A stretch of 15,222 nucleotides of DNA from Thermodesulfobacteriota bacterium (GTDB taxonomy: Bacteria; Desulfobacterota; Desulfobulbia; Desulfobulbales; SURF-16). A model generated the notes under the pieces. The model searched no databases, was not told where the DNA came from, and saw only the letters and a program-made list of their open reading frames with translations. Of this stretch, positions 2,206-14,197 are shown piece by piece (position 1 is the first letter of the stretch; each line of letters opens with the position of its first letter). The position numbers and the translations under genes are program-made. Where the stretch lies: the NCBI GenBank assembly GCA_039715015.1, contig JBDLIE010000060.1, forward strand, positions 1-15,222, in the 5' to 3' direction.

Positions 2206-3018
2206 ATGTATGACTGGTTCATAAGCCTTTCCCCCATCTATCAGGCCTTCCTCGGCACCTGCTTTACCTGGTTTCTCACCGCCCTGGGCGCTGCTATAGT
2301 CTTTTTCTTTAAGGAGATTAATCGCAAGGTGCTCGATGGCATGCTCGGATTTGCAGCCGGAGTAATGATTGCCGCCAGCTTCTGGTCACTGCTGGCTCCG
2401 GCCATTAATATGGTTGAGGAGGCAGGGGGAACAATCTGGCTACCGCCCCTGATCGGCTTTTTAAGCGGTGGTGTCTTCCTGTGGATGATTGACAAGCTGC
2501 TACCCCATGTCCATCCCGGATTTCCAGCCAACGAGGCCGAGGGCATCAAGACAAGCTGGCAGCGCAGTGTGCTGCTGGTGCTGGCCATCACTCTCCACAA
2601 TATTCCTGAGGGCCTTGCTGTGGGGGTGGCCTTTGGCGCGGTGGCCTATGACCTGCCCTCGGCAACCCTGGGCGGCGCCCTGGCCCTGGCCCTGGGCATC
2701 GGTATTCAGAATTTTCCGGAAGGAGCTGCGGTCTCTGTGCCCCTGCGCCGGGAAGGATTTTCCCGAACAAAAAGCTTCATGTACGGCCAGCTTTCCGGCA
2801 TCGTGGAACCCGTCGCCGGTGTCCTCGGAGCTCTGGCAGTCCTGATGATGCGGCCGCTGCTGCCCTATGCCCTCTCCTTTGCCGCCGGCGCCATGATCTA
2901 TGTGGTGGCCGAAGAGCTCATCCCTGAATCCCAGGCTGAAAAACATTCCGATGTTGCCACTGTAGGCCTCATGCTCGGCTTTGCCGTGATGATGACTTTG
3001 GATGTGGCGTTGGGGTAG
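2206..3018 (+). CDS. ZIP family (GufA/ZupT-like) divalent metal transporter, 270 aa
   Basis: About 8 TM segments; [56 protein letters not shown]. Confidence 0.92.
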
Positions 3019-3197: not shown

Positions 3198-6100
3198 TCA
3201 CATTTTTACTGCAATCCGTTGCCTCTGTACCAACCGTCTCTCCTCAATCCAACTGTAAAGCACCGGCACCACAAAGACGGTGAGGGTGGCGATGGCCATC
3301 CCGCCAAATGAAGGGATGGCCATGGGCACCATGATGTCGGAGCCACGGCCGGTGGAGGTAAGAATGGGCATCAGGGCCAGGATGGTGGTGGCACTGGTCA
3401 TCAGGGCCGGCCTGATTCGGCGCTCGGCACCGTCAAGGACCATGGTGCGCACCGCCTGGAGATCATTACCCTTAAAGCGGGCCTTTGACTCATCAAGAAA
3501 GGTGGCCATCAACACGCCATCATCGGTGGCAATACCAAATAAGGCCAGAAAGCCAACCCAGATGGCCACCGACAGATTAATGGCCTGGACCTGGAAGAGA
3601 TCGCGCATATTGACGCCAAAGAGGGCAAAGTCGAGGAACCAGGACTGGTTATAGCACCAGATCATCATAAACCCACCGGACCAGGCCACCAGTATGGCGG
3701 AAAAGACCATGAGGGTGGTGGGCAGTGACTTAAACTGCAGGTAGAGAATGACCATGATGACAAGGAGGGCCAGGGGTAAAATAACGCTGAGGCGCTTCTG
3801 GGCCCGGATCTGGTTTTCATAGCTGCCGGCAAAGCTGTAGGACACCCCGGCCGGCATCTCCAAGGCGCCGCTGGCGATCTTTTCCTCCAAATAAACCTTG
3901 GCAGCCTCCACCACATCCACCTCGGCAAAACCCTTCTTCTTATCAAAGAGGACATAGGCGGTGAGAAAGGTGTCCTCGCTCTTGATCATCTGCGGCCCGC
4001 GGCTGTAACGGATATCAGCGAGCTGCACCAAGGGGATCTGCTCACCGCCGGGGGTGGCCACCAGGATCTGCTCCAGGGCCTCCAGGGAATCGCGGAGCTC
4101 GCGAAGATAACGGACCCGAACCGGATAGCGTTCACGGCCCTCCACTGTGGTGGTGATCATTTTGCCGCCCACGGCCACTGAAATCACCTCCTGGACCTGG
4201 GCCAGTTTAATGCCGTAGCGCGAGATGGCCTGGCGATTAATGAAAATCTCCATGTAGGGCTTGCCCACCACCCGGTCTGCCAGCACAGTGAGCGGCGCCA
4301 CTGAAGGCACCTCTTTTAGGAGGCCTTCAATCTCCAGGGCCACCGCTTCAATGGTGGCCAGATCGGGCCCCTTTATCTTGACCCCCATGGGGGCCCGCAT
4401 CCCGGTCTGCAGCATAACAATACGGGTGGCAATGGGCTGCAGCTTGGGGGCCGAGGTCACCCCGGGCATGTCGGCGGCAGCAATAATCTCCTGCCAGATA
4501 TCATCAGCGCTCTTAATGCCTGGCCAGGCCTCCCGATTTGGGTTGATGGCCGGGTCAAGGGCAGGACGCCATATCCGAAAGAGACGACCGCCGGAATCCT
4601 CAATGAGCCTGCCTTGCTCATCTCGAGCAAAACGGCCCTGAACCAGATAGGGCGCGCCATCACCCGCCTTAACCAGCTCACCGTCCGGTGCCCTGAAAAA
4701 ATCCTTTTTGCCTGCCTCAAACTGAAAACGCAGGCGCTGGCCTTGCCCGTCGCGCAGATATTCGGAGTGATAATTGATAATAGTTTCAATCATGGAGAGT
4801 GGCGCTGGATCCAGAGGGGTCTCGGCCCTTCCCAGCTTACCCACCACCGCTTCTACCTCAGGGATGGCAGATATCTGCCTATCCTGCTGAGCCAAAACCT
4901 CCTGGACTTCGCTGATGGCGGCATGGGGCATGGTGGTAGGCATGTAGAGAAAAGAACCCTCATCAAGGGGCGGCATAAATTCACGCCCCAGCCCTGGAAA
5001 ACCGTGGGCCAGCTGCACCATGGGCCTCGTCTTTAAGAGCCAGACAGGCATCCAGGAGGTCAGCCGCGGCGCCCCAAGCCAGACCATCGCTCCCACCAAG
5101 ACAAGGAGCATAGGCAAGGCCAGAAAAATCTTCTTGTGGGCCAGGCACCAGGCCAGCATCCGCCGATACTGGCCCTGGAAGATCTGGACAAAGGCCAGGG
5201 TGACACCGATCATCAGCCCGACAAAAAACAGATTCAGCAGCTCCCCTTTTTCCACCCCAAGAGGTTGCCAAAAATGGGCAAGGATAACGGTGATAACCAA
5301 AACAGCCAGCCAATTCTCCACTCTACCCAGCTGCAATTGCACGGCAGGTGGCAACCATTTAAGGGCAAAACGATAGCCGCCAATGCCGACAAGAATCAGA
5401 CCCAAGGGGCTGACCATCACCACCAAAACTATGCCGGCCACAACCAGGAGAGCCGGCAGAACAAACTGCAAAAATCCGGGCCGGCCATGCTTCTTCATCC
5501 GGGTAAAGAGGAGGTGGGCCAGGGGCGGCAGTACTGTGAGGGCCAGAATGATGGAGGCAATGAGGGCAAAGGTCTTGGTGTAGGCCAACGGCTTGAAAAG
5601 TTTACCCTCAGCAGCCTCCATGGCAAAGACCGGCAGGAAACTGACAATGGTGGTGGCCACAGCAGTGAGTACCGCAGAGCCAACCTCAACGCTGGCCTCG
5701 TAAATGACGGTGAGGGAATGGGCCTCAGGGCCCGATTCTTCCAATTTTTTCAGGATGTTTTCACAGATGATGATGCCCATATCAACAATGGTACCGATGG
5801 CAATGGCAATACCGGAGAGGGCAACAATATTGGCATCCACCCCAAAGATTTTCATGCCGATAAAACTTATCAGCACTGCCAAGGGCAGCATAGAGGAGAC
5901 GAGAAAGGAACTCTTGAAATGCATGAGGCAGATGAGCACCACGATGATGGTGATGAGAATCTCCTCGCCCAGAGCGGTCTTCAGGGTATCAAGGGTTTCA
6001 TGGATCAAACCGGAGCGATCATAAAAGGGAACAATGGTAAGCTTACTCACCGTACCGTCTGCCAGGGTTTTACTGGGCAGTCCCGGGCCGATCTCCTTGA

Positions 6101-7109
6101 TTTTCTCCTTTAGGCGGTCAATGGCGGCCAGGGGGTTATCACCGTAGCGCACCACAGCCACACCACCCACCACCTCAGCACCGCCCTTGTCAAGCACACC
6201 GCGGCGCAGGGCTGGGCCAAGGGAGACCCGGGCCACGTCTCCAACCCGGATGGGCAGGTTTTCGCTGGCCTTGATCACCGCAGATTCAATATCGCTCAGG
6301 TCCTTGACAAAACCAATGCCGCGGATGACGTACTCAACCCGATTAATCTCTATGGTACGCGCCCCGACATCGATATTGGACATCTTGACCGCTTTAAAGA
6401 CCTCTTCCAGGGTGACGTTATGCGACCGCATGGCCGCCGGGTCGACATCAATCTGGTACTCCTTGACAAAACCGCCGATGGAGGCCACTTCAGAGATGCC
6501 TGAGACCCCCATCAAGGCGTAGCGCACATACCAGTCCTGCACCGAGCGCAGCTCATCAAGATCCCAGCCACCGGTGGCCTGGCCCTGTTCATCACGGCCC
6601 TCTATGGTGTACCAAAAAATCTGGCCCAGGCCCGTGGCATCCGGGCCAAGGACTGGCCGGACCTCATCGGGCAAGGTACCTTGGGGCAGGCTGGCCAGCT
6701 TTTCCAAGAGCCGCGTTCGCGACCAGTAAAACTCCACCGAGTCATCAAAAATGACATAAATGGAAGAAAAACCGAACATGGAGTAGGAGCGCACCGTTTT
6801 AACTCCGGGCAGGCCCAGAAGCGCCACGGTGAGCGGGTAGGTGACCTGATCTTCAACATCCTGGGGGGAACGGCCCTGCCATTTAGAAAAGACGATCTGC
6901 TGGTTCTCGCCTATATCTGGAATGGCATCCACCGGCACCGGGTCACGGGGCAGGCCAGCCAGCTGAAAATGAAAAGGGGCCACCATCAGCCCCCACCCAC
7001 AAACAGCCAGCAATACCAGACCTACCACCAACTTATTAATCAGGCAGAATCGAACAATATGGCCCACCAGAGTGGTGGCCTTGGGGAGTTGGTCGTTGTC
7101 TGGGTTCAT
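3198..7109 (-). CDS. cusA: CusA/CzcA-family heavy-metal efflux RND permease, enlarged (about 1303 aa), likely Cu(I)/Ag(I)
   Basis: PVDAIPDIGENQQIV, GRSPQDVEDQVTYPL, LGPDATGLGQ, GIAIAIGTIVD, ERRIRPALMT. Met residues in contexts matching the E. coli CusA Met triad: FLYMPTT, DPAPLSMIET, TRIVMLQTG. Start is ATG 7109 (or TTG 7112). Confidence 0.92.
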   Translation of the reverse strand: MNPDNDQLPKATTLVGHIVRFCLINKLVVGLVLLAVCGWGLMVAPFHFQLAGLPRDPVPVDAIPDIGENQQIVFSKWQGRSPQDVEDQVTYPLTVALLGLPGVKTVRSYSMFGFSSIYVIFDDSVEFYWSRTRLLEKLASLPQGTLPDEVRPVLGPDATGLGQIFWYTIEGRDEQGQATGGWDLDELRSVQDWYVRYALMGVSGISEVASIGGFVKEYQIDVDPAAMRSHNVTLEEVFKAVKMSNIDVGARTIEINRVEYVIRGIGFVKDLSDIESAVIKASENLPIRVGDVARVSLGPALRRGVLDKGGAEVVGGVAVVRYGDNPLAAIDRLKEKIKEIGPGLPSKTLADGTVSKLTIVPFYDRSGLIHETLDTLKTALGEEILITIIVVLICLMHFKSSFLVSSMLPLAVLISFIGMKIFGVDANIVALSGIAIAIGTIVDMGIIICENILKKLEESGPEAHSLTVIYEASVEVGSAVLTAVATTIVSFLPVFAMEAAEGKLFKPLAYTKTFALIASIILALTVLPPLAHLLFTRMKKHGRPGFLQFVLPALLVVAGIVLVVMVSPLGLILVGIGGYRFALKWLPPAVQLQLGRVENWLAVLVITVILAHFWQPLGVEKGELLNLFFVGLMIGVTLAFVQIFQGQYRRMLAWCLAHKKIFLALPMLLVLVGAMVWLGAPRLTSWMPVWLLKTRPMVQLAHGFPGLGREFMPPLDEGSFLYMPTTMPHAAISEVQEVLAQQDRQISAIPEVEAVVGKLGRAETPLDPAPLSMIETIINYHSEYLRDGQGQRLRFQFEAGKKDFFRAPDGELVKAGDGAPYLVQGRFARDEQGRLIEDSGGRLFRIWRPALDPAINPNREAWPGIKSADDIWQEIIAAADMPGVTSAPKLQPIATRIVMLQTGMRAPMGVKIKGPDLATIEAVALEIEGLLKEVPSVAPLTVLADRVVGKPYMEIFINRQAISRYGIKLAQVQEVISVAVGGKMITTTVEGRERYPVRVRYLRELRDSLEALEQILVATPGGEQIPLVQLADIRYSRGPQMIKSEDTFLTAYVLFDKKKGFAEVDVVEAAKVYLEEKIASGALEMPAGVSYSFAGSYENQIRAQKRLSVILPLALLVIMVILYLQFKSLPTTLMVFSAILVAWSGGFMMIWCYNQSWFLDFALFGVNMRDLFQVQAINLSVAIWVGFLALFGIATDDGVLMATFLDESKARFKGNDLQAVRTMVLDGAERRIRPALMTSATTILALMPILTSTGRGSDIMVPMAIPSFGGMAIATLTVFVVPVLYSWIEERRLVQRQRIAVKM

Positions 7110-7181
7110 CAAATGTTATGTTTCCTGAGAGATCATCTGTAATTAACAGCACGAGGCAACTGTTTTGCTGCAGCCAATCTG

Positions 7182-7244
7182 CCCCCCTCACCCTAACCCT
7201 CCGGAGTCTCCCTCCGGTCGCATACCTCCCTCATGGAGAGGGGA
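7182..7244. repeat. CCCTCACCCTAACCCTC...GGAGAGGG-type palindromic repeat interrupted by a CCGGAG/CTCCGG hairpin
   Basis: CCCCCTCACCCTAACCCTC, then a roughly 25-nt insert containing CCGGAG-TCTCC-CTCCGG, then TCCCTCATGGAGAGGGG. A truncated partner-like CCCCCTTGCGGGAGAG lies at 7415-7430. Confidence 0.55.
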
Positions 7245-7431
7245 TACAATGCTCCCGCGCCCTTTGCTTGATGAAAAGCGTCGCGAGCGCCGGAAGGACA
7301 AGGAAAAAATGAGAGAAGAAGCATGCCCTGAAAGAGATAAGCGAAGACTTCGAGTGCCCTTGGGGTGCAGCTCACATGCGCAGGTGAGCATTCTAAATTC
7401 TTTTTTCCTCGGTACCCCCTTGCGGGAGAGT

Positions 7432-7501
7432 AGCGGCGACAACAAAGAGTGCGGCAACAAGGCCTTTAGACGCAGGATTTCCCAGCGCAGTAGCTTTTCA
7501 C
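7432..7501 (-). repeat. Degenerate direct copy of the operon leader and micro-peptide 5' region (11396-11500)
   Basis: 7432-7468 matches 11396-11432 at 35/37 nt. 7469-7501 aligns more loosely (about 24/36 by eye) with 11466-11500. Confidence 0.8.
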
Positions 7502-7505
7502 AAGC

Positions 7506-9554
7506 CTACACCTCGTCATGGAGCTGTTTCTGCACCTCGCCACAACGCAGCATCATGGCACCAAAATAGGGATTGTTAATCTCTTCATTTTCGGCAAGCC
7601 AGGTGGCACCGGTGTTTCCGAAGGCCATGGGGCAGAACTGCTGAAAGACCGGCCCTGTACCCTCAACCCCTAAATCCTTCACAGCCTGACTAAGCACCTG
7701 ACTCAAGGGATAGAAGGCTGTCCGGATCTCTTCTATTTCTCCGTTTGCCTGTAAGGCCATACCAACCTTGCTTAACTCCTGGGCCAAGGGCTCTTGGACA
7801 AAGGGGATGACCTCCTCTAAGGCTGCCTCAACCTTGGCCACTGCCTTCCGGGCAGCGGCAAGATCATCAGCAGCCAAGCCCTTCTGCAAAAGAAAATACT
7901 CATTCACGAGCCTGCCAAGGGCCAGCTGCACCTCCTGGGAAGCGCCACCATTCTCGTCATCCTGCAAATCATACTGACGGCGCAGGCCATGGAAATGCTC
8001 AGCCATGGAGGCATAAAGTCGATCACGTTCACCGCGGTCTGCGGCCTCTTGAAGAAGAATCACATCACCTGCAAGAAGCATGGCCATTTCCTGCCACACC
8101 AATTTATCCTCCCCGCCTAGGCCCACGTCAGCCATGGCCTGCAAACGCTGCTGAAAGGCGGCAAGGAGGGGTTTTAAATCATCCTGATTGTTCTGATGAA
8201 CCTGCTCGGAAAGCTTGCCAAAAAGTTTATTGAGAGTTTTGAGTTTGGAGGTAAAAAGTTCCGGCAGGGCTTCCTTCTTGTCGCCGCCTCCTGCCAGAAA
8301 GGGATTCATCATGGAAGGCCGGGCCTGGAGCTGGATGGCGGAGTCAATCTTGAAATTACCCGCACTTACGACAAGCTCCCCTTCAACAAGGCCGCTTTCC
8401 ACCTGGTAATAATTGCCGCGCCGGGGCCCGAGAATGACCTCCTTGCCCAGGTAGACACCTTCCTGATCTGGGAGTTGGACGTAAACAAGGGCACGCTTGC
8501 CGGTGATCAGCGGCGCTGACACCGGAATGAGCAAGGGCAGATTGACATCTGCCAACGGTGCTAACTCACGGGCCTGGGCCCTTACGAACATGCCGGGCTT
8601 AAGCGCCCCTTCTTCATTGTTAACATTAAGACGGACACGGATGGTCCTGGTCTTATCATTAACCAGCGGATCAATATAGGCGACCTTGCCCTGAAAGGAC
8701 CGGCCAGGAAAGGCCTCGACATTAAAGCTTACCTGCTGGCCCAGGCTGAGGCCCTGCAAATCCGACTCATAGGCCTCCAGCACCACCCAGAGAGACCCCA
8801 GGTCGGCAATGGTATAGATAGGGGCACCCGTTTTAACATACATACCCTCAAAAACATTTTTCTTGATAACAATGCCGCTCATGGGCGCCAGCAGAGTGAT
8901 ATGGTCAATGGGCTGGCCGCGCTCAACCACCTCATCAATCTGTTCCCGGGTCAAGCCGAGAAGACGGAGCTTGTCCCGGGCCGCCTTCTCGGTGCGCACA
9001 ACGGTATTTTTGAGGATTGAGGAGCTGCTCTTTTCAAACGTTGCCACAGCAGATACGGCCTGGATAAGCTCGGCCTGGGCAGTGAGCAATTCCGGACTGT
9101 AAATCTCGGCCATTGCCTGGCCCTTTTTGACCAGGGAGCCGGTATAATCGACATGGAGGGTATCAATGCGGCCTGCCACCCAGGCGGTGATGGTACCCAA
9201 CCGGGTTTCGTCATAATCCACCTTGCCCACCATCCGGGTCTCAACACCTGCCGCGCCGCGGATGACCGGCACGACCTCGACCTGGGCAAGCTTGCGGGCC
9301 CGTGCATCAAAGCTGATCTGACGCAAACTCTGACGCTTGCCGGCGCTATCATCCTTGGGCACCTCAATGAGATCCATAAAACAGATGGGGCACTGGCCAA
9401 ACTCCGGCAGCTGGATCTGCGGATGCATGGAGCAGGTCCACACCGTTTCCGCCTCGTCATGATCATGCTCTGCCGGAGCAGCTTGGGCCGTTACCGGCAA
9501 GACAAGCAGAACCAGGATGAACAGAAGGCCTATTTTTTTTATGTGCTGAAACAT
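7506..9554 (-). CDS. cusB: CusB-like RND periplasmic adaptor with N-terminal heavy-metal-binding domain and C-terminal DUF3347-like region, 682 aa
   Basis: Signal/TM segment, HDHD stretch, WTCSMHPQI...CPICFMDL, YSPELLTAQAEL, LKPGMFV, SAGNFKIDS, C-terminal FCPMAF...W...NPYFG.MMLRCG. AAGGAG RBS upstream of the ATG at 9554. Confidence 0.88.
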   Translation of the reverse strand: MFQHIKKIGLLFILVLLVLPVTAQAAPAEHDHDEAETVWTCSMHPQIQLPEFGQCPICFMDLIEVPKDDSAGKRQSLRQISFDARARKLAQVEVVPVIRGAAGVETRMVGKVDYDETRLGTITAWVAGRIDTLHVDYTGSLVKKGQAMAEIYSPELLTAQAELIQAVSAVATFEKSSSSILKNTVVRTEKAARDKLRLLGLTREQIDEVVERGQPIDHITLLAPMSGIVIKKNVFEGMYVKTGAPIYTIADLGSLWVVLEAYESDLQGLSLGQQVSFNVEAFPGRSFQGKVAYIDPLVNDKTRTIRVRLNVNNEEGALKPGMFVRAQARELAPLADVNLPLLIPVSAPLITGKRALVYVQLPDQEGVYLGKEVILGPRRGNYYQVESGLVEGELVVSAGNFKIDSAIQLQARPSMMNPFLAGGGDKKEALPELFTSKLKTLNKLFGKLSEQVHQNNQDDLKPLLAAFQQRLQAMADVGLGGEDKLVWQEMAMLLAGDVILLQEAADRGERDRLYASMAEHFHGLRRQYDLQDDENGGASQEVQLALGRLVNEYFLLQKGLAADDLAAARKAVAKVEAALEEVIPFVQEPLAQELSKVGMALQANGEIEEIRTAFYPLSQVLSQAVKDLGVEGTGPVFQQFCPMAFGNTGATWLAENEEINNPYFGAMMLRCGEVQKQLHDEV

Positions 9555-9718: not shown

Positions 9719-9973
9719 TTACCCCTTGGGTACAGCCTTTGGCTCCTGGCCTTGCTCTTGCAGCTTATCCAGATACTTCTGGGGGTCCTTTTTAAACTGG
9801 CCATCACAATAGGCGCAGCAGAAATAGACCCGTTGGCCATCATGGTCAGCATAGAGCTGCTCGTTGACGGTACCGCCCATCACCGGACAGGTGGTCTGGG
9901 GTTCGGCCAGGGCAACGGTGGCAAAGGTCAACACCATTAACAGGGGAAAAAATAAAGATTTGGCGGTTTTCAT
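9719..9973 (-). CDS. Secreted YHS-domain protein, 84 aa, putative metal chaperone
   Basis: Signal peptide ending ALA-E, TCPVMGG, VYFCCAYCDGQFKKDPQKY. AAGGAG RBS at 9980-9985. Confidence 0.88.
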   Translation of the reverse strand: MKTAKSLFFPLLMVLTFATVALAEPQTTCPVMGGTVNEQLYADHDGQRVYFCCAYCDGQFKKDPQKYLDKLQEQGQEPKAVPKG

Positions 9974-10035: not shown

Positions 10036-11298
10036 TTACTCATGCCAGTCAGCCAAGGTCACCCCCACCAGCTCTTCCAGGCGGGCAACCTCAAGGGCCT
10101 GATCGGCCAGGGCTCTTTTCAGGTCCAACTCTAACTCCAATAAATTTTTTTCAGCATCTAGAAGGGAAAGAACACTCCGGCGCCCATCTTGAAAGGCCTG
10201 CAGGCCTACCTCAACCTCCTGACGGATCTTGGGGATGACACTCTTCTGATAAAGAGTATGGCGGCGTTGGGCGTCTCGGTACCGAAAGAGCCCTTGATCA
10301 ATAGCAGCATCAAGATTTCGAATCTGTTGCTGCCTTTTTCCCCGCGCGGCCCTGATCTCTTGCTGTTTTTCCGCCACCGCTCCGTTACGCCTGTCACGAA
10401 AGAGGGGAATGCTCATGGTAATTCCGGCAATCACTGGATCACGGCCACTGTCAGGTGGATCTGCAAACTCAGCCTCGTCAGTGATAATTGTTTTCAGACT
10501 GAATGCCAGATCCGGATAAAAATCACTTTCGGCAATTTCCAGGGAGCTCTTTGCCTTCTTCACAGCCTTCTCAGCCCCAGAAAGTTTTGGGCTTTTTTGA
10601 CGGGCCAAGTTATAGAGATCCGTCTCATTGACATTCATTATAATGGAGGGCAATTGGGCCGGATTTGTTCGCGCAATTTCTCGGGAAGCGCCCAGCACAG
10701 AATTCAACTGGCCTTGCAGAGGTTCAATCTGATCATGCAGGGAACGCTGCCGTTCTTCCAGACGGGCCAGCTCCACCTGAACCTTCAGGACATTGCCATA
10801 GTCAAGCTTGCCGGCGCTGTATCTGGTCAGGGCCACTGATTCAAAATAGCGCAACAACTCCAAGCCTTCGTCAGTGATCCGCCGGGCCTCGGTATTAAAG
10901 GCATAGGCTATGTAAATTTCCTTCACCCGCCGAACAACCTTGAGCTGCACCTCATGGAGCTGGCTTTCTACAATGGCGCTTTTAAGACGAACCTCTTTTT
11001 TCTGTGATGATAATTTTGTCGGCCAGGGCACACGCTGGCTGAGGCTGATAGCAGCCTCTTGGGGGCCGGTACGGGTTTCCACCGGTTCCAGATAATATTG
11101 CACCCCCAATACAGGGTCGGGCAGTACGCCTGTCCTTCTTATCTTCGCCTGGGCAGCTTGAAATGCCGCCTGAGAAGCGACAAGTTCATCATTATGAACC
11201 AGTGCCTCCTCGACATATTGCTCCAGCGAAGCAGAAGCCGTTTGCTGCCCCATGAGCAGAAAAACGGCTCCTAAAAAAATGCATATCCCCTTATTCAT
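10036..11298 (-). CDS. TolC-family outer membrane factor (CusC-equivalent), 420 aa
   Basis: Signal peptide, LPDPVLG, SQRVPWPTKL, YPDLAFS, SIPLFR, LLDAE, and two OEP repeats. ATG 11298 preferred over GTG 11355, which lies inside the upstream micro-ORF; no clear RBS. Confidence 0.88.
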   Translation of the reverse strand: MNKGICIFLGAVFLLMGQQTASASLEQYVEEALVHNDELVASQAAFQAAQAKIRRTGVLPDPVLGVQYYLEPVETRTGPQEAAISLSQRVPWPTKLSSQKKEVRLKSAIVESQLHEVQLKVVRRVKEIYIAYAFNTEARRITDEGLELLRYFESVALTRYSAGKLDYGNVLKVQVELARLEERQRSLHDQIEPLQGQLNSVLGASREIARTNPAQLPSIIMNVNETDLYNLARQKSPKLSGAEKAVKKAKSSLEIAESDFYPDLAFSLKTIITDEAEFADPPDSGRDPVIAGITMSIPLFRDRRNGAVAEKQQEIRAARGKRQQQIRNLDAAIDQGLFRYRDAQRRHTLYQKSVIPKIRQEVEVGLQAFQDGRRSVLSLLDAEKNLLELELDLKRALADQALEVARLEELVGVTLADWHE

Positions 11299-11311: not shown

Positions 11312-11443
11312 TTACTTGGCAAAAGTATCGGTCTCACAGTCCCAGTAAGTGCCACCGGGGACTGGGCCAGCTAAGGCGCTGGTTCCAACAAAAAGAGCAG
11401 CGACAACAAAGAGTGCGGTAACAAGGCCTTTAAAAGTTTTCAT
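11312..11443 (-). CDS. Small secreted peptide, 43 aa (25-aa signal peptide plus 18-aa mature GPVPGGTYWDCETDTFAK)
   Basis: AGGAG RBS at 11451-11455, 7 nt before ATG 11443. Typical Sec signal MKTFKGLVTALFVVAALFVGTSALA. First ORF after the predicted promoter; stop lies 13 nt before the TolC start. Confidence 0.7.
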   Translation of the reverse strand: MKTFKGLVTALFVVAALFVGTSALAGPVPGGTYWDCETDTFAK

Positions 11444-11515
11444 GGCTGGTCTCCTAAATAAAATGGACGCACCGTTTCCGGCACAATATAACTTCTTCAT
11501 TTATGAGGTTACTAG

Positions 11516-11531
11516 TTCAGATAATATGCCA
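11516..11531 (-). promoter_or_regulatory. Putative sigma54 (-24/-12) promoter for the efflux operon
   Basis: Minus strand TGGCATATTATCTGAA versus consensus TGGCACGNNNNTTGCW. GG-N10 spacing is correct, but -12 is GA instead of GC. It is adjacent to a sigma54 activator gene. Predicted TSS near 11505. Confidence 0.6.
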
Positions 11532-11690: not shown

Positions 11691-11736
11691 AGATTAGAGA
11701 ATATTCTCTAATCTGATTAAAGAATATTCTCTAATC
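11691..11736. promoter_or_regulatory. Tandem palindromes, putative enhancer (UAS) for the sigma54 activator
   Basis: Perfect 24-bp palindrome AGATTAGAGAATATTCTCTAATCT (11691-11714) and a one-mismatch copy GATTAAAGAATATTCTCTAATC (11715-11736), with a 23-bp period. Confidence 0.7.
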
Positions 11737-13080
11737 TTCCTTATCAAACTTCTCCAACCTATAGATAAGGACGTGCCTGGGGATCTTGAGAAGACGGGCA
11801 GCCTGGGAGCGATTACCATTACTTTGTCGCAAGGCCTTTTCTATAAGGGCCTTTTCCACTTCAGGCAGGGAAAGCCCTTCCGGAGGAATTTCAGGAACCA
11901 GGCCTTTTTCCCCCAGGGAGGTACTCGGCAGAAAAATATCTTCCTTTTCAATGCATTCAGAGCTGCGCAAAATAAGGCAACGCTCCACAACATTCTGCAA
12001 CTCACGGATATTTCCCGGCCAGGAGTAGGACTGCAAATACCCAAGGGCCTTTTTGCTGAAACAGACCCCTGTTGGCGCCGAAAACTTCCTGAGGAAATGG
12101 TTTACCAGGGGTGTGATATCCTCCCGTCGTTCCCGCAGGGGAGGTAGGTGGAGGGGGATGACACTGAGGCGATAAAAAAGATCTTCTCGAAAGGCGCTCT
12201 GCTTGATCTCTTCTTGCAGATTACGGTTGGTGGCCGCGATAATCCTGACATCCACGGCCTCACTGTCGTCACTGCCCACCGGCTCGACTATCCTCTCCTG
12301 TAAGGCCCGGAGAAATTTCACCTGCATTTCCGGCTGCAGCTCTGCTATTTCATCGAGAAAAAGGGTGCCACCCTTTGCTGACTGAAAACGTCCCCTGCGA
12401 TCTTTAACCGCTCCGGTAAACGCTCCTTTCACATGGCCAAAAAGCTCGCTTTCAATAAGATTTGCCGGAATGGCGGCGCAGTTCACTGCCACAAAGGGTT
12501 CGCTACGCCGGCCGCTCACCTGATGAATAAGGCGGGCCAGCACCTCCTTGCCGGTGCCAGATTCGCCAGTAATTAAGACGGTGGCCTCTGAACCCGCCAC
12601 CTTCTGGGCTGTTTCCAGCAGCTCGGCCATGGCCGAATTTGCTGTCACCATTCCCTCAACGCCAGTGAGGCGATTAATCTCCTTGGCCTGATTTTTTGTC
12701 CGGCTTTTAAGTTTCTTAAGCTCCAGGGCCTTGGCACAGGAAAGCCGCAAAGCATCCCGGTCAAAGGGCTTGGTGATAAAGGTAAATGCCCCGAGGTGCA
12801 TGGCCTGCACAGCCATCTCAATGGACCCAAAGGCGGTTATGATGATAACCGGCACTTCCGGCGCCTCCTCCTTAAACTGTTTAAGGAGGTCTATGCCGCT
12901 CATATCGCCGAGCTGGACATCAGTGATAACAAGGGACGGCTGTTTTTTTGTAAATGCAGCAAGACCCTCGGCCCCATTGGCAGCCGACAGTACGGAAAAA
13001 CCTGCAGTAACGAGGTTATATTCTGTCACCCGGCGCAGACTCTCGTCATCATCTATAAGAAGTATATGTTCATCAGCCAT
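11731..13080 (-). CDS. Sigma54-dependent response regulator (NtrC/ZraR/AtoC family; REC-AAA+-HTH Fis), 449 aa
   Basis: LLIDDD and ITDVQL receiver motifs, [56 protein letters not shown]. Confidence 0.95.
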
Positions 13081-14197
13081 GTTTGTAGATCATTTCCTGG
13101 CGCGGCACATTCACTGTGAAAAGGGCTCCGCCCAGCTCAGAGCGAGACACCGTGATTTTGCCGCCATAGCTCTCGATGATTTTGGCGCTGATTGCAAGGC
13201 CAAGTCCGGTACCTTCTTCCCTTCCTGTATAAAAAGGGGCAAAAACCTGCTCATACTCTTCCTCTGGAACACCTGGCCCATCATCGGCAAAGGAGATGAT
13301 CCCCCCGCCGTCCTCCCGGGCAAGGTTTACGACAATGTGACCGCCTTGCGACACTGCCTCAACTGCGTTGATCAACAGATTGATAAAAACCTGGGCCATT
13401 TTATCGGCATCCACTAAGACGCCCTTGCCCTTTGATGGCAGGTTGAGTTCTACATTAATACCTTTTTTACTAAATGTATTATCCAGCAGAGTAATGACCC
13501 GTTTTAAAATCATAGAGGCTTCTTCCTTTTTCGGCTCCTCCCCCCCGCTCTGCTGCTGCCGCCGTGAAAAATTAAGAACTTCTTCAACCGTCTTATTCAA
13601 CCTGGATGTCTCTTTGAGAAGTATCTCAGCAAATTCCCTTTTTGGATGTCCCTCAGGAAATTCATCAAGAAAGATCTCAGCCGTACCCTTAACAGAGGCC
13701 AGCGGATTTTTAATCTCATGGGCCAATGAGGCTGAGAGCTGGCCCAGGGCTGAAAGTTTCTGGCTGGCCCGCAACTGCTCTTCAACTTCGATAAGAAGCT
13801 CTGCCTCCTCATGGAGGCGACGGTAGGAGCGTTCAAGCCGTGACGAGAGATCCTGATATTTTTCCCTGAGCCGTGACTCGCGACTGGCAATAAAACCCAC
13901 ACCACCTCCGGCCAAAAGATAAAGTATTACCTCGGCCAACTCACTGAGATAAAAATCATAGTTCATGGCGTGGAAGACATGGAGATGGGGAATAAATGCC
14001 AGGCAAGCAAGGAGGGCCAATGCAATACCACCCCGCATTCCGAAAAGAAGTCCCCCTACGACAATGGGAAAATAGCTTATGCGGCGATAAGTTTCATGAA
14101 AGACAAGTTTTTCACCCGGAGTGAGATGATGAAGTGCCCCTATCACGATGAGGCTCAAGGCCAAAAGGGTGAAGTGCAGGGCCGATTTATTAACCAT
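13073..14197 (-). CDS. Membrane sensor histidine kinase (HisKA-HATPase_c) with a His-rich N-terminal domain of about 4 TM segments, 374 aa
   Basis: H-box SLAHEIKNPL, N-box INLLINAVEA, DDGPG, FAPFYT, GTGLGLAIS. Overlaps the response regulator by 8 nt. Confidence 0.93.
   Translation of the reverse strand: MVNKSALHFTLLALSLIVIGALHHLTPGEKLVFHETYRRISYFPIVVGGLLFGMRGGIALALLACLAFIPHLHVFHAMNYDFYLSELAEVILYLLAGGGVGFIASRESRLREKYQDLSSRLERSYRRLHEEAELLIEVEEQLRASQKLSALGQLSASLAHEIKNPLASVKGTAEIFLDEFPEGHPKREFAEILLKETSRLNKTVEEVLNFSRRQQQSGGEEPKKEEASMILKRVITLLDNTFSKKGINVELNLPSKGKGVLVDADKMAQVFINLLINAVEAVSQGGHIVVNLAREDGGGIISFADDGPGVPEEEYEQVFAPFYTGREEGTGLGLAISAKIIESYGGKITVSRSELGGALFTVNVPRQEMIYKHG

Follow-up and report, generated by a model that had tools for sequence, protein, structure and literature searches.

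The window analysed here (the whole stretch of 15,222 nucleotides) carries on its minus strand, at 11312-11443, an ORF of 43 amino acids which, on the comparative evidence, is a real conserved coding gene. As judged from its distribution, this micro-peptide gene is a genus-specific, optional and late add-on to a metal-efflux operon. The function that we favour, and to which we give a little less than an even chance, is that of an unmodified, trans-acting periplasmic peptide that would bind Cu(I) or Ag(I) and count 18 residues after cleavage.

Organization of the operon and its promoter region

The genes follow one another on the minus strand in the order sensor kinase, sigma-54 response regulator, micro-peptide, tolC, YHS-like exported protein, cusB and cusA. 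The features considered are the following:

13073..14197, minus strand: sensor histidine kinase, 374 aa, with four predicted membrane spans (read from sequence); HisKA and HATPase_c domains
11731..13080, minus strand: sigma-54-dependent response regulator, 449 aa; Response_reg, Sigma54_activat and HTH_8 domains
11693..11738, no strand assigned: tandem palindromic site (GAATATTC twice), putative enhancer for the regulator, present at one place only in the genome
11517..11531, minus strand: sigma-54-type promoter TGGCATATTATCTGA, with a -12 element that reads TGA, not TGC, genus-wide
11468..11485, minus strand: GC-rich hairpin in the 5' leader, from leader folds
11451..11455, minus strand: Shine-Dalgarno (SD) sequence AGGAG of the micro-peptide gene, its GAG invariant in 7/7 aligned genomes
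11312..11443, minus strand: micro-peptide gene, 43 aa, from ORF reading, orthologues and core pN/pS
10036..11298, minus strand: TolC/CusC-type outer-membrane factor (PF02321)
9719..9973, minus strand: exported YHS/TRASH-like Cys protein, 84 aa (weak PF04945 match, below the cut-off)
7506..9554, minus strand: CusB-type membrane-fusion protein with a heavy-metal-binding domain (PF16576, PF19335, PF11827)
3198..7109, minus strand: CusA-type RND pump (TIGR00914, above the cut-off)

The pump scores above the TIGR00914 cut-off, and in its alignment with E. coli CusA (E 1.4e-193) a Met stands at each of the three Met positions of the metal site, M573, M623 and M672 of the E. coli protein. It was therefore assigned, by homology, to the Cu(I)/Ag(I) type. 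The YHS protein belongs to the operon both in and outside the genus, and in all 8 loci whose context was read the micro-peptide lies within a CusA-type operon. A ZIP-family metal transporter gene (2206-3018, plus strand) converges on the end of cusA, as it also does in the genome G002.

An earlier interpretation of this DNA made from its letters alone (hereafter the sequence-only reading) had described the micro-peptide as a promoter-proximal first gene; indeed, it is the first ORF downstream of the sigma-54-type promoter at 11517-11531 and is followed by tolC. RpoN is encoded in the genome. The palindrome lies 55-171 nt upstream of a sigma-54-type promoter in the 22 listed locus/strand cases across the order, and 157-168 nt upstream within the genus; this enhancer-like palindrome and the promoter travel with the kinase-regulator pair. 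A leader hairpin of 5-7 bp, differing in sequence, was found in 9/9 leaders of the genus (L002-L008 and L135 included), the peptide-less one among them, with leader z-scores from -0.2 to -5.1 across the loci. It is perhaps a 5' stabiliser or a weak attenuator.

The promoter variant of the genus (TGA at -12, usually TTTCCTGA) pairs in the consensus fold with the SD/start region of the peptide gene (11440-11455, minus strand); this pairing is weak in the window genome. It could hide the ribosome-binding site (RBS) when transcripts of the regulator gene read through, or reflect the chance complementarity of two conserved motifs.

Evidence that the micro-peptide ORF is a coding gene

The product, read from the window sequence, is MKTFKGLVTALFVVAALFVGTSALA-GPVPGGTYWDCETDTFAK-stop. 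The AGGAG stands 7 nt from the ATG, and the stop codon is separated from the tolC ATG (11298) by 13 nt, so that RBS, start codon, 43-aa frame and gap are all as the sequence-only reading had described them. An alternative in-frame ATG, 57 nt upstream, would open a 62-aa frame; it has no SD and is not conserved.

By itself, the anatomy of the ORF is only modestly above chance. When a heuristic (not SignalP) was applied for a signal peptide preceded by an SD, 6 of the 885 SD-led ORFs of 35-60 codons in the genome passed, against 2, 2 and 2 in three shuffles of 936-989 ORFs.

An orthologous ORF occupies the same place, each time flanked by a sigma-54-type promoter and tolC, in 7/8 genomes of the genus, and the homologues differ in length by whole codons only. 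Over nine gene copies, the eight-codon core gave a pooled pN/pS of 0.20 and a JC dN/dS of 0.13, against a pN/pS of 0.62 for the signal region, values which are descriptive because the copies are kin. In the same nine copies, the variable columns of the core number 1, 4 and 7 of 8 at codon positions 1, 2 and 3; the antisense frame sharing the wobble positions keeps 4/8 columns, as expected. From the shared place, the whole-codon lengths and the low pN/pS of the core, it was concluded that the ORF is real. The conservation of the mature region, with dN/dS below 1, by which the sequence-only reading had proposed to check the gene, was thus observed.

Distribution, loss and duplication of the family

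Among the genomes searched, the family is known from one genus of Desulfurivibrionaceae. In the protein collection it comprises 18 clusters of 41-47 aa, the window protein included, one of them with a longer called start. The prediction that gene callers would miss the gene did not hold, since the window protein is deposited there with 17 relatives, one of which carries the NCBI name 'hypothetical protein'. A 715-aa cluster 'member' was dropped, its sequence being unrelated. All these sequences are close kin, and counts of homologues are therefore not independent.

If the gene were truncated, as the sequence-only reading had considered, longer homologues would be expected. An HMMER profile scan of 1.84 billion representatives returned 7 matches, all of 41-45 aa, one of them new and diverged, and none longer; a weak search among 8000 candidates also gave no longer forms, and a wider alignment brought in no additional family members. 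At the DNA level, a pattern scan of 185,579 genomes retrieved 17 stretches, 4 of which are family members and 13 unrelated, the pattern having covered the Tyr form only, so that Trp forms were missed. The metagenome scan with the peptide led to 3 loci from 29 stretches, of which 1 is real and 2 are chance matches; with TolC, the metagenome scan gave no match. The two chance matches (L136 and L137) lie inside long polyproteins unrelated to the micro-peptide, which presumably resemble LTR-retrotransposon products.

Within the Desulfobulbales, the peptide was found in 7 of 401 genomes, all of the same genus, plus one weak eighth match. In 9 other genomes, the family-level matches are weak (E 0.003-0.08) and extend over nothing but the signal-like portion of longer frames. 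The 11 orthologous tolC-YHS operons read outside the genus all have no such ORF, and in 10 of them the regulator stands directly upstream.

One genome of the genus, G005, is without the peptide: the whole gene is deleted between the peptide ATG and the tolC ATG, the operon is otherwise intact, and tolC now stands behind the leader of the deleted gene. In the kinase tree, G005 is nested in the peptide-bearing clade as the sister of G006 (support 100/100), so that its state is a loss. Conversely, the closest relative of the window genome on this tree (L135) has two tandem copies, one of the His type and one of the Pro/Trp type; the window genome likely retained only the second, Pro/Trp-type, copy. 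The absence outside the genus, the loss in G005 and the doubling in L135 together indicate that the peptide is an optional and late addition.

A 37-bp copy of the DNA coding for the signal region (35/37 identical) was also noticed at 7432-7468, minus strand. It is inserted in one copy of a modular genome-wide repeat element, at about 7100-7500, between cusB and cusA; 7 other aligned copies of the element are without this insert, and the genome has no other match with up to 11 mismatches. One of its two differences corresponds to the allele of the relatives G003 and G004.

A further observation concerns the locus L140 (G143:C7), from another family, in which three tandem ORFs of 45 aa (1501-1638, 1712-1849 and 1923-2060), each with a strong SD, follow a sigma-54 activator gene and, at 1349, a sigma-54 promoter of consensus type. 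Their signal peptides resemble those of the micro-peptide family (E about 1e-4 to 1e-5). Each mature part is acidic and begins with C-E-D, the rest being different, and the first ORF has no NCBIfam match. This array possibly represents another family of exported micro-peptides with one Cys, or it consists of atypical lipoproteins.

Predicted anatomy of the peptide

The two parts of the precursor are the following:

11369..11443, minus strand: predicted Sec signal peptide, residues 1-25, with cleavage after A-L-A25 (alignment and heuristic, not SignalP)
11321..11344, minus strand: conserved core W34-D-C36-E-T-D39-T-F41, predicted beta-hairpin with the Cys in the turn (alignment, pN/pS and AlphaFold)

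Family sequences stand at 36-80% identity, and M1, K2, K5, L17, A25, the Cys and the Asp three residues past it are invariant in 21/21 aligned proteins, the invariance of Cys and Asp extending to the most diverged member. The signal peptide with its A-L-A site, as proposed in the sequence-only reading, is borne out by the heuristic and by the alignment: in 24 of 25 distinct sequences, position -3 is S, A or T, position -2 is F, L, Y or V, position -1 is A and position +1 is G or V. This conserved -3/-1 site supports the predicted export by the Sec pathway and cleavage of the precursor. A lipoprotein was rejected, the Cys lying 8-14 residues past the predicted cleavage site.

The predicted mature peptides have 15-22 residues (18 for the window copy) and a net charge of 0 to -3. 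They consist of a variable Gly-rich arm, the core [YW]-D-C-E-T-D-[TS]-F with its one invariant Cys, and 2-4 further residues; in all 18 proteins the stop falls within 2-4 codons past the core Phe and the mature part has a single Cys. In the W-D-C-E core singled out by the sequence-only reading, D-C-E belongs to the conserved core, and the Trp is a minority form (3/18 proteins). If cleavage occurs as predicted, 19 of 24 homologues have a His within the first four mature residues, and in 15 of 24 it stands at mature position 2 or 3. N-termini with His2 or His3 are described as Cu(II) sites in the available text of PMC9599103. The window copy, which belongs to the His-less Pro/Trp subtype, and four others of the 24 have no His.

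AlphaFold2, run with an 18-row alignment, gave a helix at 2-25 and strands at 32-35 and 40-42 joined by a C-E-T-D loop, the hairpin being predicted with low confidence (pLDDT about 60). The core shares with chignolin and the protein G B1 hairpin the pattern aromatic-Asp-x-Glu-Thr-x-Thr-aromatic and a predicted four-residue loop. As described in the part of PMC9054626 at hand, the chignolin fold is held by a Tyr2-Trp9 contact, an Asp3-Thr8 turn and a Thr6-Thr8 side-chain bond; Tyr2, Asp3, Thr6, Thr8 and Trp9 correspond to the aromatic residue, Asp, Thr, Thr/Ser and Phe of the family. Chignolin differs in being designed and in having Pro and Gly where the family has Cys and Asp, and the likeness is one of pattern, not of descent. 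A relaxed chignolin pattern, picked after the likeness had been seen, had a single match among the 6.0 million residues of the six-frame translated genome, the micro-peptide itself. A Foldseek search against the PDB gave no match at E 0.001, and the best ESM Atlas score was 0.78, below lead level. In the most diverged homologue, Y-D-C and the second Asp are kept but T, T/S and F are not. This suggests that the Cys region is what matters most, and makes a strict need for the hairpin less likely.

The kinase-regulator pair

In the kinase, residues H23, H34, R38, R39, Y42, H71, E86 and E89 are conserved (58 and 45 orthologues). Among them H23, H34, H71, E86 and E89, all in the membrane domain, are present in at least 90% of 58 orthologues, 49 of which come from outside the genus. 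Since these His/Glu residues are conserved outside the genus too, the kinase likely senses metal without the peptide. The sequence-only reading had suggested that the peptide could be a feedback ligand for this kinase; as the sensor residues are equally conserved in the 49 kinases from outside the genus, a required ligand is unlikely. The kinase of G005, where the peptide is lost, keeps the genus-specific residues apart from conservative changes. A complex prediction with peptide residues 14-43 and two kinase membrane domains was uninformative (score 0.00, controls not folded).

Among the L078-L117 loci listed, the pair, recognized by its invariant membrane His/Glu residues and its GAATATTC palindrome, heads two kinds of operon across the Desulfobulbales: tolC-YHS-cusB-cusA, or a gene for a GxxCxxC exported protein followed by one for a small Cys-rich exported protein. 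The pair has the appearance of a metal-sensing system that is as yet uncharacterised.

A putative periplasmic metal-binding peptide

The mechanism that we favour would proceed as follows. Metal bound at the His/Glu site of the adjacent kinase would activate the regulator, which would act from the palindromic enhancer. Because its gene leads the message and has a good RBS, the peptide would be made at least as abundantly as the pump. Signal peptidase I would then release a peptide of 15-22 residues, as the conserved -3/-1 site suggests. The [YW]-D-C-E-T-D-[TS]-F core may fold as a chignolin-type hairpin (a low-confidence prediction), in which most of the conserved residues would serve the structure and the Cys would be exposed in the turn, flanked by acidic residues. 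In the His-bearing members, the thiolate would bind Cu(I) or Ag(I) together with the His of the Gly-rich N-terminal arm; in the His-less members, the window copy included, a 2:1 Cys-metal-Cys complex would form. The peptide would thereby buffer periplasmic metal, and may hand it to the YHS protein or to CusB, as an optional booster and not as a core part of the pump.

The tandem duplicate of L135, with its two different N-terminal arms, fits a product acting in trans. A Cu/Ag-binding peptide had also been proposed from the sequence alone: the invariant Cys, the N-terminal His of most homologues and the CusA-type pump lend this proposal indirect support, the window copy itself being without His. 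CusF (PF11604) was not found in any of the 5 genomes of the genus searched. A ribosomally made, modified peptide of the MNIO kind was rejected, PF05114 being absent from 5/5 genomes, the own genome being 99.99% complete and the Caulobacter control positive; with neither this enzyme nor another modifying gene, the product is likely unmodified. There is a precedent in the Sec-exported bufferins, which sequester periplasmic copper according to the text available for 10.1101/2024.03.18.585515.

Several points weigh against metal binding. A single Cys is a poor stand-alone Cu(I) site, and the window copy and four other sequences are His-less; the YHS protein of the operon, with its four Cys, could already do the metal-holding job; and the operon is intact without the peptide in one genome of the genus and in 11/11 outside ones. 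The strict conservation of an eight-residue surface also fits protein binding. Moreover, short periplasmic peptides are often degraded fast.

A broader form of the metal-binding reading is advanced only tentatively. The peptide would be a natural, enzyme-free metallophore of ~2 kDa, in which signal peptidase alone turns a precursor of 41-47 aa into a chignolin-like hairpin that offers its Cys to Cu(I)/Ag(I), most members having an N-terminal His site for Cu(II) as well; it would then exemplify a larger group of exported micro-peptides with one Cys, driven by sigma-54, in the Desulfobulbales.

Alternative explanations

The most serious alternative, to which we nevertheless assign a minor share of probability, is that the peptide would be a protein ligand that tunes the system, either by damping or tuning the pump, as CzcI does, or by feeding back on the kinase, as MgrB does, with its Cys in a disulfide or a metal bridge to the partner. 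At the head of a metal RND operon, its gene stands where czcI does (PMC10127602, in the part consulted). In addition, its size and Lys-hydrophobic-polar layout recall the 47-aa MgrB, and C36, D39 and F41 share their Cys-to-Asp spacing with C28, D31 and F34, residues important in MgrB (10.1101/438515, available portion). A fixed eight-residue core on a free linker would suit a binding epitope, and the conserved R38/R39 of the kinase could meet an acidic peptide. However, MgrB as described there requires an uncleaved span and two Cys, and the family has a cleavage site and one Cys. The genus-typical kinase residues are kept in the peptide-less genome, and several of them recur in peptide-less family members, so that no co-evolving kinase patch is visible. 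Finally, many genomes have the kinase but not the peptide (the kinase in 88 of 301 Desulfobulbales genomes, against 7 true matches for the peptide in 401).

It is rather improbable that the Cys instead serves as a thiol in sulfur or redox chemistry, capping or carrying metal-sulfide clusters or persulfide in the periplasm of sulfur-cycling bacteria. Such a role would agree with an invariant Cys and an optional His, and with a gene confined to one genus of the Desulfurivibrionaceae, a family tied to sulfur cycling in the sources at hand. The sigma-54-driven array of another Desulfobulbales genome points the same way: it encodes three exported peptides, each acidic and with one Cys, and the long ORFs listed around it include no metal pump. 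But a CusA-type operon surrounds the peptide at each of the 8 loci whose context was read, and within the operon there is no thiol-redox or sulfur-transfer gene.

The sequence-only reading had also mentioned a translational coupler for tolC. More generally, the ORF could encode a leader peptide that acts in cis, as in CutF/CruR, or serve simply as a coupler, the released product being inert, an explanation with a very small chance in our estimate. The gap between stop and tolC is 10-13 nt in 8/8 loci. In 2 of them (the window genome and G007) tolC has no SD, and the anti-SD duplex of the window genome is worth -0.6 kcal/mol for tolC against -7.3 kcal/mol for the peptide; the absence of an RBS before tolC, noted from the sequence alone, stands for the window genome, but 6 of 7 related loci have a moderate SD (-4.5 to -7.1 kcal/mol) that often overlaps the peptide's stop codon. 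Single folds pair the Thr-Phe codons with the stop/SD region in 3/8 loci. On the other hand, the consensus fold of the stop-tolC junction contains 0 pairs over 8 loci, and a CutF-type stem-loop was rejected on this ground; the z-scores of the individual folds run from +1.8 to -2.2. The upstream tandem copy of L135 keeps its core, though it does not adjoin tolC. The ribosome tunnel holds about 30-40 residues; in a chain of 43 aa the Cys and most of the chain are still inside it at the stop codon, and a CutF-like co-translational sensing in the periplasm cannot work. CutF likewise has a Sec signal, a Cys and the first position (10.1101/2022.11.11.516240, in the text available), but the CxxxC and the C-terminal PP motif which are both needed in it are absent from 18/18 proteins of the family. 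Because of the tandem copy away from tolC, the clean loss in G005 and the want of a consensus RNA structure, coupling cannot explain the conserved peptide; it is likely a by-product in the window genome.

According to another explanation, with a slighter chance still, the hydrophobic stretch would stay uncleaved and anchor the product in the inner membrane as a single-pass protein, of which a short tail would reach into the periplasm. Many small membrane proteins have this length and layout, and AlphaFold gives one helix at 2-25; yet the small -3, Ala -1 and Gly or Val +1 residues are kept in 24/25 sequences while the hydrophobic core varies freely (pN/pS 0.62).

Finally, it is scarcely credible that the ORF arose by chance or is what truncation left of a longer gene: about 2 such ORFs arise per shuffled genome and one member of the genus has no gene, but the core is under purifying selection, no longer relatives were found in the searches above, and the stop lies 2-4 codons past the Phe in all 18 proteins. 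A frameshifted tolC N-terminus was likewise rejected, the frame differing from that of tolC, which has its own signal-like N-terminus.

Relation to known systems and significance

CusF, the small periplasmic accessory of a Cu(I)/Ag(I) RND operon, is a folded beta-barrel that uses His, Met and Trp, and CzcI has about 115 aa. Both cusF of E. coli cusCFBA and the micro-peptide gene are small periplasmic accessory genes; the micro-peptide is without PF11604. Searches of Pfam, NCBIfam and Rfam gave no meaningful match for it. A full-text literature search returned no paper with either motif string, and searches by topic over titles and the beginnings of abstracts returned none on the family.

In the part of PMC10127602 consulted, czcICBA of Cupriavidus metallidurans is a heavy-metal RND operon that opens, like the operon of the window, with a small gene; its periplasmic product CzcI is, as predicted for the micro-peptide, an accessory and no pump subunit, and it quenches CzcCBA. 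CzcI goes with a Zn/Co/Cd pump, in contrast to the CusA-type pump, the sigma-54 control and the predicted 18-residue mature product found here, and the micro-peptide has no Pfam or NCBIfam match.

The bufferins (BufA, DUF2282 / BUF_6/12Cys) are also Sec-exported Cys peptides proposed to hold periplasmic metal under copper stress. In the available text of 10.1101/2024.03.18.585515, they have 80-120 aa and 4-12 Cys and are modified by an MNIO enzyme with a DUF2063 partner, whereas the micro-peptides have 41-47 aa, one conserved Cys and no modifying gene in the operon. CutF/CruR share the first position, the Sec signal, the Cys and a stop close to the next copper gene (10.1101/2022.11.11.516240, same portion as above). 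In comparison, the micro-peptide has no CxxxC, no PP and no conserved SD-hiding stem-loop, and its mature part counts 18 aa against 90 aa; the lists of CutF-like proteins in that source were filtered on a PP motif, which the family does not have. MgrB, the 47-aa inhibitor of PhoQ, has a similar size, a basic-hydrophobic-polar layout and a Cys-x-x-Asp followed by Phe, and the micro-peptide may, like it, be induced by a two-component system, but MgrB is an uncleaved membrane protein with two Cys, whose span is needed (10.1101/438515, available portion); Pfam MgrB gave no match among 21 members at E up to 1. By its defining features the family fits none of CusF, bufferins and CutF, and probably not CzcI either. 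Its putative role is most like that of a bufferin and its position like that of czcI, yet it is no bufferin and probably no CzcI.

The reach of these observations is narrow, being one genus among the genomes searched, and the functional steps past a conserved coding gene are inferred or predicted. Among the small accessories known for metal pumps, CusF and CzcI are folded proteins, the bufferins are peptides modified by enzymes, and CutF is a leader acting in cis. With the 15-22 residues left after export, the family would set a lower size limit for a periplasmic metal accessory, and natural variants by gain, loss and duplication exist. If the hairpin is real, it would be the natural counterpart of a designed mini-fold; and if the metallophore reading is true, we know of no periplasmic copper buffer or chaperone serving a CusCBA pump that is smaller than the micro-peptide.
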